Assembly: GCA_902790415.1 (NCBI GenBank) | Contig: CADARU010000001.1 | Coordinates: 50,071 to 114,070, forward strand | DNA length: 64,000 bases | Direction of reading: 5' to 3' | Source of the DNA: an uncultured Pseudomonadota bacterium | GTDB lineage: Bacteria > Pseudomonadota > Alphaproteobacteria > Rs-D84 | Shown: in pieces, positions 6,283-9,189 of the stretch | Layout of the letters: each line of letters begins with the position of its first letter | Position numbering within the stretch: position 1 is the stretch's first letter | The notes under the pieces: model-generated | What the model was told of the DNA's origin: nothing | Seen by the model: only the letters and a program-made list of their open reading frames with translations | The model's database searches: none | Position numbers and translations under genes: made by a program

Positions 6283-7008
6283 TTAATCTGCGCGGACAAC
6301 ACGACAAAACACCACGCCATAAACTGCCGCTGCGCCCGCACGTTTTAACACGCGCGACAGTTCGGTAAATGTTGCACCCGATGTCATAACATCATCAACC
6401 AACAAAATCTTTTTACCACGAATTTTTTCTGGTTTTATTACATTAAAAACACCGCGAATATTTTCAAACCTTTGCTTGTGCGTTTTATGTCCCATATTTT
6501 CACGATATTTGCGCCGCACAGAATCAAAATCTAGGTGTGCATTGTATACGGCGGAAATTGGCCGCGCCAACAAAGTCGCCTGGTTATAACCACGATGAAA
6601 CAAACGCCGATTTGCCAATGGCACCGGCATAACAATATCTGGTGAAATATCAACATCACGCAGCGCCCAAATCATTGCACGCGACATAAATGTTGCATAC
6701 TTGATAACCCCACCATGTTTAAACGGCAACATTGCCGACCGCGACATATCATCATAGCGACACGTCGCACGAACAACATCCAATTCCCCCAGACCAGATG
6801 CACACACCGGACACATTGCACCCGGCATATTTTCATAACCATCTGGGAACGGGTAACCACATACCGCACAATGTGGTCCGTCAATCCAATCAAAACAACC
6901 CCAGCAATCACCACATAATTCACCATGAATTGAAACCGGCGCACTGCACAATGGACAAGACGCCGGAAACAAAAAATCTATTAAACGATGAAAAATTTTT
7001 CCTACCAA
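6283..7008 (-). CDS. ComF/GntX-family phosphoribosyltransferase-domain protein
   Basis: N-terminal Cys-rich zinc-finger (CPLCSAPVSIHGELCGDCW...CAVCGYPF) plus a C-terminal PRTase motif KKILLVDDVMTSGATF. Confidence 0.7.
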   Translation of the reverse strand: MVGKIFHRLIDFLFPASCPLCSAPVSIHGELCGDCWGCFDWIDGPHCAVCGYPFPDGYENMPGAMCPVCASGLGELDVVRATCRYDDMSRSAMLPFKHGGVIKYATFMSRAMIWALRDVDISPDIVMPVPLANRRLFHRGYNQATLLARPISAVYNAHLDFDSVRRKYRENMGHKTHKQRFENIRGVFNVIKPEKIRGKKILLVDDVMTSGATFTELSRVLKRAGAAAVYGVVFCRVVRAD

Positions 7009-8393
7009 CTCATACTTTTATATGTTTTGGAATCAACAGCATCCCCGAACATATTTCTTTTTTGTTTTGTTAATGTTTCGTATTGGTCATTAGAAATTAT
7101 TCGCAACAAAAATCCTTCGTCATCGCGCGCACTTAGCACCGGCACCACGCGTTGTTCGGCAACACCGGTATCACGCAAAACCTGTTCAATAATGGCCAGA
7201 CGGCGCGCCGCCAATTTACGACCAGACGATGTTTTGGTAACAGATTCCGGAATTGCAACCTGAATTGCACGTTTTGGATTATTAACAACAATTCCCGCAT
7301 ATTCAGACAACAAATTATAATTTTCACGCGACAAGGCGGAATCCGCACTGCGGAACTTTATCTTTATTTCTAATGGGCGAATCTTGTCTTCTTCGGACAA
7401 ATCACGTGACGAGGTAAACCCTTCAAACGAAGAAGATATATCACTGGCCACATCGAATCTATCGTCCATTGAATACGTAGACAAGTGTTTATTTTCTGAT
7501 AAAAACGTTTTTCTAAATGCCTTGCGTAATTCGGCCGGCGATAATTTTGTCATATCATCACGAACCGCGTGAATATCATAATTTTTTGAACGCGCCGCAG
7601 TACGTACAACAGGCGATGCATCATCATTGCGCGACACCACCATGCGCGATAATTTTACATCATCATCCGAATCGTTTGATGCGATTTTCTGTGATACGGA
7701 TTCATGTTCAAAATCTTGGACATTATCGGCGCGCGCAACATCAAGTGTTTCGATTTCTTTGACAGATTTTTTATCAGAAACACTGGCCTCGGCACGACGT
7801 TGCAATTCAATCAAACGCGCAATTTGTGCATCCAGATTTGAAACGCGATTTGTTAATTCGGCAACTTCATCTTCCGGTACAGATACAGCGGGTGCCGTAG
7901 ATGCTTTCTTGGATTTTACAATTTTTCCAATTTTGGTTTTTTTGGTCCTTGGTGCGGATACAGATGAATATGCATCAGACACCGATACGCCAGACAAACT
8001 TTCTTCTGGCAAAATATCATTAGAAGAAATTAGCGAAAATTCATCCGCACGCGGCATACGCAAAGGCGTATCGTTCTTTGCCCACAAATCAGAACTGGGT
8101 TTATTTGGAATTAAATAATCAGAATTTAATGCGATTTTTTCACCGGTATCTTTTGAAACATTTGCACTTGTTTTTGGTGCAACAGATGTACGCGAAACAA
8201 CACGACGTGTTGCCTTTTTGGCAGCCGTATTTTTTGCGACCGTTTTTGTTGCAACAGGTGCATTTTGAACCGGCACACCAAATTCACTGCGTGCAGACAC
8301 AGCCGCCGCAGACACATTAACCGCCGGCAAACGCGCCCCCGCAAACGCCGGCAAACATAGGAAAATTCCCAACCAAGAAACTTTTGTATGCAT
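7002..8393 (-). CDS. Secreted, largely low-complexity or coiled-coil protein with an OmpA/MotB-like C-terminal domain; hypothetical
   Basis: Signal peptide (MHTKVSWLGIFLCLPAFAGA), long Ser/Lys/Asp-rich region, and a C-terminal segment ...SSGRKLAARRLAIIEQVLRDTGVAEQRVVPV that matches the OmpA_C pattern (LS..RA..V...L...GV...R). Every + strand ORF inside it is short. Confidence 0.45.
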   Translation of the reverse strand: MHTKVSWLGIFLCLPAFAGARLPAVNVSAAAVSARSEFGVPVQNAPVATKTVAKNTAAKKATRRVVSRTSVAPKTSANVSKDTGEKIALNSDYLIPNKPSSDLWAKNDTPLRMPRADEFSLISSNDILPEESLSGVSVSDAYSSVSAPRTKKTKIGKIVKSKKASTAPAVSVPEDEVAELTNRVSNLDAQIARLIELQRRAEASVSDKKSVKEIETLDVARADNVQDFEHESVSQKIASNDSDDDVKLSRMVVSRNDDASPVVRTAARSKNYDIHAVRDDMTKLSPAELRKAFRKTFLSENKHLSTYSMDDRFDVASDISSSFEGFTSSRDLSEEDKIRPLEIKIKFRSADSALSRENYNLLSEYAGIVVNNPKRAIQVAIPESVTKTSSGRKLAARRLAIIEQVLRDTGVAEQRVVPVLSARDDEGFLLRIISNDQYETLTKQKRNMFGDAVDSKTYKSMSW

Positions 8394-8485
8394 AATGTTC
8401 CTTTCCTTCCATCTGCATCATAGAACAAATCACGAATCGCACGCAAGGGGAAAATTAATATCCAAGAACTATAATTTACATTTTT

Positions 8486-9151
8486 TTAACGCAAACGATA
8501 GACCAATGGAACACCGGCACGCAACGCTTCCAACCGCGCCTTGTCCGCACCACGGTTTGCCAAATCTAATAAATATTTAGAAATTATTTGTGCGCGATAT
8601 TCAACAAAAGATGTATATAAATTACTGTTCACAACAATCGCATTTTCATGAATACCATGCGCTAATAATTCATATTTCTGACCACCATTATTATAAATTT
8701 CCCACTGGTCAGAATCACAACATGCCTGATTTACGCGAATCAAACTCTCGTGATAACGACGACGAATTGTTTCTTCGGGGACATCATGCCCCCCCAGCGC
8801 AACCCGTTGACGCACACGTGCGATATTTTGTTCAACCGATGGCAAATACACATATAAAAACATTATTTTATATCCATCGTTTCTTGCACGTGTTATAACC
8901 TTGTTATGAAAACCGCCCGCCAAAGTTGTTTCCAATGCAAAAGAATAATGCGCATCAAAAATATCATGCATATTTTGAATTAAAATACGTCCTGCCTGTA
9001 ATGAAGACACGTTTTGTTCGCGCGCAATATCATCACAATTTAAAAAATGTATTTCTGGGTTTTCACCAATCAATTCACGCGCCAGTGTTGTTTTACCACT
9101 GCCGTTCGCACCACCAATTAGATAAAAAATTTTGTCAGAATAAATATTCAT
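8486..9151 (-). CDS. Zeta-toxin-like / AAA_33 P-loop kinase
   Basis: Walker A (LIGGANGSGKTTLAREL) followed by ...HFLNCDDIARE, which resembles the zeta/PezT catalytic D-D region. The likely ATG start gives MNIYSDK; the track's upstream extension uses a TTG. It sits 38 nt downstream of the 541-aa repeat-protein gene on the same strand. Confidence 0.5.
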   Translation of the reverse strand: MNIYSDKIFYLIGGANGSGKTTLARELIGENPEIHFLNCDDIAREQNVSSLQAGRILIQNMHDIFDAHYSFALETTLAGGFHNKVITRARNDGYKIMFLYVYLPSVEQNIARVRQRVALGGHDVPEETIRRRYHESLIRVNQACCDSDQWEIYNNGGQKYELLAHGIHENAIVVNSNLYTSFVEYRAQIISKYLLDLANRGADKARLEALRAGVPLVYRLR

Positions 9152-9189
9152 GTCTGACAAAGTATAATACAAAAAATCACAAATGTCAA

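Follow-up and report, generated by a model that had tools for sequence, protein, structure and literature searches.

The window analysed here is a 64,000-nucleotide (nt) stretch of the genome of an uncultured alphaproteobacterium of the Rs-D84 lineage (assembly GCA_902790415.1, contig CADARU010000001.1, positions 50,071 to 114,070 of the forward strand). On its minus strand it contains a gene for a 221-amino-acid (aa) protein in which a zeta-type kinase domain is followed by a short C-terminal tail. The tail resembles a small, separately encoded protein found beside the kinase gene in relatives, and the gene is a candidate for a single-chain toxin-antitoxin (TA) module. Positions given without a locus name are those of the window.

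The gene runs from an ATG at 9151 to a stop codon ending at 8486 and comprises 221 codons. The listing of open reading frames (ORFs) extends it to a TTG at 9172; the ATG was taken as the start because the homologues all begin with MNIY... or M..IY..., at about 221 residues. A sequence search with the kinase found 1069 homologues. Comparison with the 92%-identical homologue at locus L029 gave a ratio of nonsynonymous to synonymous substitution rates (dN/dS) of 0.13 for the whole gene, with 0.14 in the kinase domain and 0.10 in the tail. With more than 1000 homologues and purifying selection, the gene is not a chance ORF. In the same comparison the synonymous rate (dS) was 1.26 in the tail (8486-8593, 27 synonymous sites) and 0.17 in the kinase domain; the higher tail value could be due to recombination with a breakpoint at the 3' end, or to noise in so small a sample.

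A first-pass annotation made from the sequence alone had described a zeta-toxin-like kinase with the motifs GGANGSGKTT and NCDDIARE and without an obvious epsilon-type antitoxin gene. Translation located both motifs in this ORF, at residues 13-22 and 38-45. The missing antitoxin gene was confirmed as well: the flanking gaps of 38 nt and 92 nt leave no space for a small antitoxin gene, epsilon-type or other, and the upstream gene encodes 541 aa.

Kinase domain and catalytic motifs

Two Pfam models alone scored above their cut-offs in the profile search that the first-pass annotation had proposed: Zeta_toxin (PF06414), which reached 35.3 bits where the gathering cut-off is 22.3 and matched along model positions 16-189 of 199, and the generic AAA_33 (30.2 bits against 27). 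An AlphaFold2 model built from an alignment of 92 homologues reached a predicted local distance difference test (pLDDT) score of 92 and a predicted template modelling (pTM) score of 0.84. Foldseek placed this model nearest to solved zeta-type kinases in the Protein Data Bank (PDB): the first ranks were held by PezT (2p5t), zeta (3q8x and 1gvn) and AvrRxo1 (4z8q-v), with E values of about 1e-7 and template modelling (TM) scores of 0.53-0.63. Lower ranks were held by PFK-2 and by the kinase domains of T4 Pnk and bacterial Pnk. The window protein is almost certainly a kinase of the zeta superfamily.

Fifteen residues were invariant among the 92 aligned sequences, and all of them fell within catalytic motifs: G14, N16, G17, G19, K20, T22, D40, E74, T76, R112, R116, G120, G121, H122 and R132. 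The position of D40 corresponds approximately to D66 of PezT (hit ranges 4-101 and 30-143, respectively) and to D36 of Mycobacterium tuberculosis Rv0366c (PMC6362051). At the position of the E-GTXR substrate motif of zeta and PezT, with GTXR as defined in PMC6362051, the Glu and Thr are retained and the Gly and Arg are substituted. The family form of this segment is E-[TS]-T-[LI]-[SA]-G, with T or S at position 75 and A or S at position 78; that of the lid is RVxxRVxxGGH. For the E-GTXR motif and for the Asp, the correspondence to PezT and zeta was deduced from the ranges of the hits, from the match to Pfam and from the description in the literature, and the register of GTXR is partly inferred.

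The catalytic residues of zeta, whose conservation the first-pass annotation had wanted checked, were thus kept in part: the Walker A K20, D40, E74 and T76 are present, the Gly and Arg of GTXR are not. Its placement of the protein among zeta/PezT/AAA_33 kinases agreed with Pfam and with the fold. Its analogy with zeta toxins that phosphorylate UDP-N-acetylglucosamine (UDP-GlcNAc, UNAG) was weak, the GTXR position reading TTLA. Lacking this defining feature, the window kinase appears to stand outside the canonical group of UNAG kinases. It belongs to a short RVxxGGH branch, which is probably that of Rv0366c.

The C-terminal tail and a family of small partner proteins

Relatives of about 188 aa were accompanied by a small ORF of 43-106 aa that overlapped or abutted the kinase stop codon, and this partner ORF was present in every short relative with a readable locus. 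Its length was 62 aa at L010, 53 aa at L011, 106 aa at the P0094 locus, 47 aa at L012 and 71 aa on a Persephonella marina plasmid (L027); a downstream partner ORF was also found at L018-L020 and L022-L023. Clustered at 90%, the partner family numbers at least 233 members; each is annotated as hypothetical, and none had a Pfam match. Its consensus is MPEIVEKMTRIGNTAVHAAQEENRRKGIPNVYVLNGKIVWQLPDG, laid out as one helix, a G-[VI]-P-x-V-Y motif and a beta-hairpin. A hidden Markov model (HMM) of the family matched the Persephonella ORF at 2e-21 and a 47-aa ORF at locus L024 at 1.4e-9. When contigs were scanned with the kinase alignment, generic P-loop matches swamped the output and only six distant loci emerged, among them L012 and L013. 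The former carries the partner downstream; the latter, an actinomycete relative of 31% identity, has a ParD_like gene directly upstream (44.5 bits), as does Rv0366c.

Homologues of 205-260 aa from uncultured Alphaproteobacteria have about 35 C-terminal residues beyond the end of the ~188-aa relatives. Among the 120 homologues listed, 79 were of this length and 77 of these carried the tail. The homology of the tail was settled by the finding of an alphaproteobacterial split pair at L024, which lies 2.7 kb upstream of that genome's own fused 221-aa gene. The split kinase (L024 2776-3327) has 183 aa and is 46% identical to window residues 9-182 (E=7e-52), and directly after it stands the 47-aa ORF, MQKKNYELSAKLLRLANRGAHRAQERARRAGVPVTYAIGDKLIEVKL. 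In BLASTP, window residues 190-218 matched this ORF at 17 of 29 positions (59%, E=1e-8). In the fused 228-aa protein P0058 the whole tail matched it to the last residue, with 51% identity over 41 aa (E=5e-12).

Profile comparison agreed. An hhalign alignment of the 77 tails with the partner family had P=2.7e-4, a score reached by none of 60 column shuffles, and the reversed alignment scored far lower. The partner HMM run directly against the long kinases gave weak matches (E 0.1-4), all in the tail and in one register. As the tail is homologous to a separate partner ORF, the window gene reads as a kinase-partner fusion; from sequence, the tail is very probably the fused partner. The fusion would account for the missing antitoxin gene. 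In the AlphaFold2 model the tail lies in a long helix (residues 176-211, pLDDT >90), and in the window lineage the partner segment is reduced to its own helix and GVPLVY.

Both forms thus occur in one genome, the split pair at L024:2776-3471 and the fused gene at L024:6001-6666. The fused form there might buffer the split pair or be buffered by it.

Table 1. Features of the kinase gene and its start region, in window positions.
Feature	Position	Strand	Basis
Whole gene, 221-aa zeta-family kinase with probable partner-derived fused tail	8486..9151	-	ORF, Pfam, homologues, AlphaFold2
Kinase domain, residues 1-188	8588..9151	-	Alignment to the stand-alone L024 kinase, Foldseek
Walker A/P-loop GGANGSGKTT, residues 13-22 (K20, T21/T22)	9086..9115	-	Translation, 92-sequence alignment
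NCDD, presumed catalytic base D40	9029..9040	-	D40 invariant, N38 nearly so
ETTLAG at the position of the zeta/PezT E-GTXR substrate motif	8915..8932	-	E74 and T76 invariant
Lid motif RVRQRVALGGH (R112, R116, G120, G121, H122)	8786..8818	-	All five invariant
RRR, R130-R132	8756..8764	-	R132 invariant, R131 nearly invariant
C-terminal tail, residues 189-221 and stop	8486..8587	-	Homology to partner ORF
Partner-homologous part of tail, residues 190-218	8498..8584	-	tblastn map
Sigma-70-like promoter TTGACA-17-TATACT, 11/12 matches	9161..9189	-	Consensus match only

A candidate toxin-antitoxin module and its alternatives

Metagenomes scanned with the partner alignment gave 80 loci, 65 of which had enough upstream sequence and formed 49 distinct clusters. 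The kinase was intact in 25 of these, disrupted in 11 (truncated, frameshifted or internally deleted) and undetectable in 13. The partner ORF was open in all 49. At several kinase-less loci all that was left of the kinase was a few codons from its beginning or end, joined to the start of the partner. Loss or breakage of the kinase in 24 of 49 loci with the partner kept is the pattern expected of a TA pair.

Orphan partners were seen at L021, L037, L038, L043, L054, L058 and L083, and at others in L032-L111, with independent kinase deletions. Some of the deletions leave a promoter joined to the open partner ORF, and at L054 an unrelated ORF is joined to the last ~10 kinase codons.

A total of 503 plasmid records contained relatives of the kinase, some of them in the kle/kor/par maintenance region of Escherichia coli conjugative plasmids. 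One of these loci, L026 (NZ_CP075702.1, 9945-10786), lies on an E. coli plasmid and consists of a 196-aa zeta-family gene and an overlapping upstream ORF of 83 aa. The pair is located between kleE and genes for TrfB-related, ParA and ParB proteins on conjugative enterobacterial plasmids of ~41 kb. The 83-aa ORF contains GVPIYY...PDG, a string that recalls the partner motif; it is not claimed as a partner homologue, its HMM match having E=0.025.

Several known systems bear on the reading. The Rv0366c-Rv0367c pair of M. tuberculosis (PezAT-Mtb) has been studied by experiment: Rv0366c is bacteriostatic and is neutralised by its partner (Tandon et al. 2019, PMC6362051). It has a conserved Asp36, Arg116 and His122 and lacks the GTXR motif for UDP-GlcNAc (PMC6362051). 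Rv0366c and the kinase part of the window protein are alike in being short (~190-200 aa and 188 aa), in their P-loop and catalytic Asp, and in missing GTXR; compared by published description, R116 and H122 of the window protein carry the same numbers as Arg116 and His122 (PMC6362051). The partners differ. Rv0367c is a separate upstream antitoxin of 129 aa, of the ribbon-helix-helix/ParD-like type, whereas the window gene has none upstream and its partner segment is a C-terminal fusion unrelated to ParD.

The streptococcal epsilon/zeta and PezAT systems (1gvn, 3q8x, 2p5t) share with the window protein the P-loop phosphotransferase fold, Walker A, the Asp, and the Glu and Thr of E-G-T-x-R. Their kinases are 250-290 aa long, have GTXR, phosphorylate UDP-GlcNAc and are paired with an upstream three-helix antitoxin. 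The window protein is only 12-16% identical to them and has no epsilon or PezA gene.

EzeT of E. coli, reportedly described as a single-chain TA system by Rocker and Meinhart in 2015, resembles the window protein in that toxin and partner-derived segment form a single polypeptide. As outlined in a recent review, its one chain holds a zeta-family kinase and a neutralising, cis-acting partner (PMC10532202); the antitoxin domain is described as N-terminal and the kinase as a canonical UNAG kinase. In the window protein, by contrast, the segment is a ~30-residue C-terminal helix of an unrelated small-protein family, GTXR is absent, and inhibition in cis is presumed.

In the AvrRxo1-Arc1 pair of Xanthomonas oryzae the toxin gene is often inactivated and the downstream gene intact (PMC4938570), the pattern also seen in the partner loci. 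The pair is an established case in the superfamily of a toxin gene that comes first and is followed by a small antitoxin gene (PMC4938570). The split relatives have the same order; in the window the two are fused. AvrRxo1 also gave the best superposition (TM 0.58-0.63, root-mean-square deviation (rmsd) 4.3-5.6 A over ~212 columns, PDB 4z8q-4z8v) at 14-15% identity. It differs from the 221-aa window protein in its length of ~420 aa and its type III secretion region. Arc1, of 81-98 aa, has three to four helices and the motif KExFD...(Y/L)ExxYY, which is absent from the partner consensus.

Taken with these systems, the data incline us to the view that the partner and the tail act as an antitoxin. 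We likewise lean, with some reserve, towards reading the window gene as a single-chain, self-contained kinase/partner module of TA-like character within the zeta superfamily. Among the options offered by the first-pass annotation (a domesticated kinase, an effector or a non-canonical TA pair), the last came closest, with the partner in cis and not the upstream 541-aa protein that it had named. A broader proposal is tentative: that the partner family is the antitoxin of a widespread toxin-first zeta-like branch and that its fusion in uncultured Alphaproteobacteria created a second, independent single-chain zeta TA. The window protein would then be a mirror image of EzeT with a substrate other than UDP-GlcNAc, and the orphan partners would be anti-addiction remnants.

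In such a module residues 1-188 would act as an ATP-dependent P-loop kinase. K20 and T21 would bind ATP and Mg, and D40, as general base, would take the proton from the hydroxyl of the substrate. E74, T76, R112, R116, H122, R131 and R132 would make up the lid and the substrate pocket, with the RxxxR...GGH lid and R131/R132 binding the substrate phosphates. If unrestrained, the kinase might inhibit growth by phosphorylating an essential metabolite, presumably of the nucleotide type because of the AvrRxo1-like fold and the lost Arg of GTXR; a UDP-sugar or NAD-like compound would be likelier than UDP-GlcNAc specifically. The partner-derived tail would restrain the kinase in cis, as the N-terminal domain of EzeT does, and the kinase could become active when the tail is proteolysed or displaced. 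As to its origin, loss of the stop codon by a small deletion would have joined kinase and partner in one reading frame in the alphaproteobacterial clade, and the window lineage would later have shortened the fused partner to the helix and GVPLVY.

Several points weigh against this reading. The asymmetry of loss was drawn from a partner-based search, and the kinase-based census comprised six loci only. Experimental toxicity is known from Rv0366c and would be carried over by analogy to the partner-linked branch. The tail is predicted to be continuous with the last helix of the kinase, so that it might project outward or mediate dimerisation, not fold onto the active site, and the last 10 residues (GVPLVYRLR) were modelled at low confidence. 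The window tail is without the beta-hairpin of the partner and may bind weakly or serve otherwise. Finally, the best solved relative by sequence profile was the kinase domain of Pnkp1 (E=6.5e-9) and not PezT (E=1e-4) or zeta (E=1e-3).

The alternative that survives best, although we hold it to be unlikely, is a regulated non-toxic kinase with a normal physiological role, for instance in the salvage or repair of metabolites or in resistance to small molecules, for which the partner or tail serves as a structural, specificity or activating subunit. Two features of the gene that count against a toxin would suit such an enzyme. Its chromosomal position is conserved in three lineages, the window, L005/L006 and L024, where the kinase is followed by a gene for a ~450-aa secreted protein, ComF and valyl-tRNA synthetase (ValRS) in this order, as would also fit a domesticated function. 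Its promoter looks strong and constitutive, which is surprising for a toxin. Purifying selection on both domains, the fusion of subunits as a classic signature of an obligate complex, and a location outside defence and mobile contexts point the same way; PADLOC returned matches at the P-loop only, and no known defence system was indicated. The census argues otherwise: the kinase is gone or broken in about half of the 49 partner loci while the partner stays open, and a subunit that activates an enzyme would not be expected to persist so systematically without it. Relatives on plasmids and in maintenance regions, and the bacteriostatic Rv0366c-type relative (PMC6362051), also speak for a toxin. 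The kinase moreover diverges much faster than its neighbours: between L024 and the window it is 65% identical, ValRS 88%.

Improbable, in our assessment, is a polynucleotide 5'-kinase of the T4 Pnk/Pnkp type, whose targets would be RNA or DNA ends and whose role would be repair or that of a toxin directed at RNA. The Pnkp1 match already mentioned was the top PDB profile match; it covered positions 6-132 with the NxDD and RxxxR...G..P motifs and set the RVRQRVALGGH lid against the RxxxR lid of Pnkp1. Foldseek aligned T4 Pnk and Clostridium thermocellum Pnk at an rmsd of 3.1-3.7 A over ~150-161 columns, T4 Pnk having the highest identity (22-23%), and a PHROG 'polynucleotide kinase' family matched at 2.9e-5. 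Pnkp1 and T4 Pnk (4xrp, 1ltq) have G-x-x-G-S-G-K-[ST]-T, N-x-D-D and R-x-x-x-R...G..(V/I)P in common with the window kinase. P-loop, Asp and RxxxR lid motifs are common to many P-loop kinases. Once the Walker A region was removed, the family profile matched no solved kinase in the PDB, and the Pnkp1 match thus rests largely on generic kinase motifs; a PDB search with the single sequence likewise gave matches at the P-loop level only. Full-length Foldseek rank and TM score favour PezT, zeta and AvrRxo1, and Zeta_toxin and AAA_33 were the sole Pfam models above cut-off. Pnkp1 and T4 Pnk act on nucleic-acid ends together with phosphatase and ligase partners, whereas the window protein has a single domain and neither it nor its neighbours contain a phosphatase, ligase, Hen1 or Rnl domain.

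A role for the upstream 541-aa protein as antitoxin, chaperone or co-effector, or for the kinase as a secreted effector, has very little probability. Both genes are on one strand with a terminator-free gap of 38 nt between them, their adjacency is kept in L029, and AvrRxo1 shows that zeta-like kinases can serve as effectors. Against this, the 541-aa gene and a 204-aa gene are missing from the syntenic loci L005/L006 (kinase 57% identical) and L024 (65%), where a ~100-aa secreted protein homologous to the window ORF 11532-11834 immediately precedes the kinase. The 541-aa protein is accordingly not the conserved partner of the kinase and was rejected as such. The kinase has its own predicted promoter within the 38-nt gap, and its context differs again at L001 and L007/L025. 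Neither a secretion signal nor a secretion-system gene was seen near the kinase gene.

An ordinary housekeeping kinase (gluconate, shikimate, adenylate or guanylate) that is zeta-like through its P-loop only is hardly credible: the weak NCBIfam matches to gluconokinase, adenylate kinase and shikimate kinase were confined to the P-loop (residues ~8-75) and far below cut-off (20.3 against 113.75 bits for the best, gluconokinase), the Zeta_toxin match covers nearly the whole Pfam model, the distribution is patchy with plasmid-borne relatives, and the best match to a housekeeping family that the first-pass annotation had named as speaking against its reading was not found.

Recent surveys class as orphans those zeta toxins for which no epsilon or PezA gene can be recognised, and the 2023 FEMS review looked for new antitoxins in upstream genes only (PMC10532202). 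Some of these orphans are perhaps not orphans, as the partner may lie downstream of the toxin gene or inside it. Zeta-family TA systems themselves are already known; the variant proposed here has toxin and partner in one chain and draws on a partner family not annotated before, which is here defined as a small-protein family of its own. Full-text literature searches returned nothing for COG4185 or for zeta toxin combined with NetFlax. As the branch probably acts on a compound other than UDP-GlcNAc, the chemistry of the family may exceed the three substrates known, and the frequent outlasting of a lost kinase by its partner adds a further data point on the decay of TA loci.

Start region and neighbouring genes

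The promoter-like element upstream of the kinase gene is the top-scoring sigma-70-like site in 6900-12000. It is identical in sequence in L029, and a TTGACA/TTGCAA...TATNAT element was also present upstream of the gene in the remaining lineages examined. The weak ribosome-binding site (RBS) noted in the first-pass annotation was borne out, as no Shine-Dalgarno sequence was recognised before the ATG. Only 9 nt separate the end of the -10 box from the ATG, which suggests a near-leaderless mRNA and would account for the absent Shine-Dalgarno sequence. The kinase gene appears to form a transcription unit by itself.

The upstream gene (9190-10815, minus strand) encodes the repeat protein much as the first-pass annotation had described it. 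Four repeats of ~60 aa, two at each end (residues ~9-68, 81-140, 397-456 and 465-524), surround a central domain of ~250 aa; their consensus is sKNFdkYlenFLktGen.G.p.erls..dW..in..LksrGvgL. The protein had no match in Pfam, NCBIfam, PADLOC, PHROG or PDB sequences. Judged from the loci compared, a variable island reaches from the rRNA operon to the kinase, and the genes for the 541-aa and 204-aa proteins are part of its cargo. The ORF at 11532-11834 (minus strand), a Cys-containing secreted protein of ~100 aa, is conserved at the border of this island. Elsewhere, at L001, L007 and L025, the kinase stands in quite different contexts. Phage origin is unlikely, with only two weak matches in 50,697 phage records.

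Five small genes of 64-86 aa lie in tandem within 11930-13773 (minus strand): 11930-12190, 12308-12502, 13052-13270, 13276-13503 and 13525-13773. They look paralogous, share a recurrent F-I/V-I/V...G...Y...MP motif and had no match in PHROG. A 150-aa gene (12514-12966) is located in the same island, between the rRNA operon and the kinase. The island at L024 contains similar small genes, and its 67-aa ORF is 56% identical to window 12314-12484.

The rRNA operon (14283-19227, minus strand) is complete, with 16S, tRNA-Ile, 23S and 5S genes. In its 16S-23S spacer tRNA-Ile(GAT) alone was detected, and tRNA-Ala was not.

On the downstream side of the kinase lies the gene for a 463-aa secreted protein (7002-8393, minus strand) with a weak C-terminal OmpA-like match. 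Its upstream region (8394-8470) contains a promoter-like TTGCGT...TATGAT and a strong RBS, GGAAGGAAAGGAACAT, both conserved in L024 and L005. In the window lineage this protein is always encoded between the kinase and ComF, and its identity is only 57% where that of ValRS is 88%.

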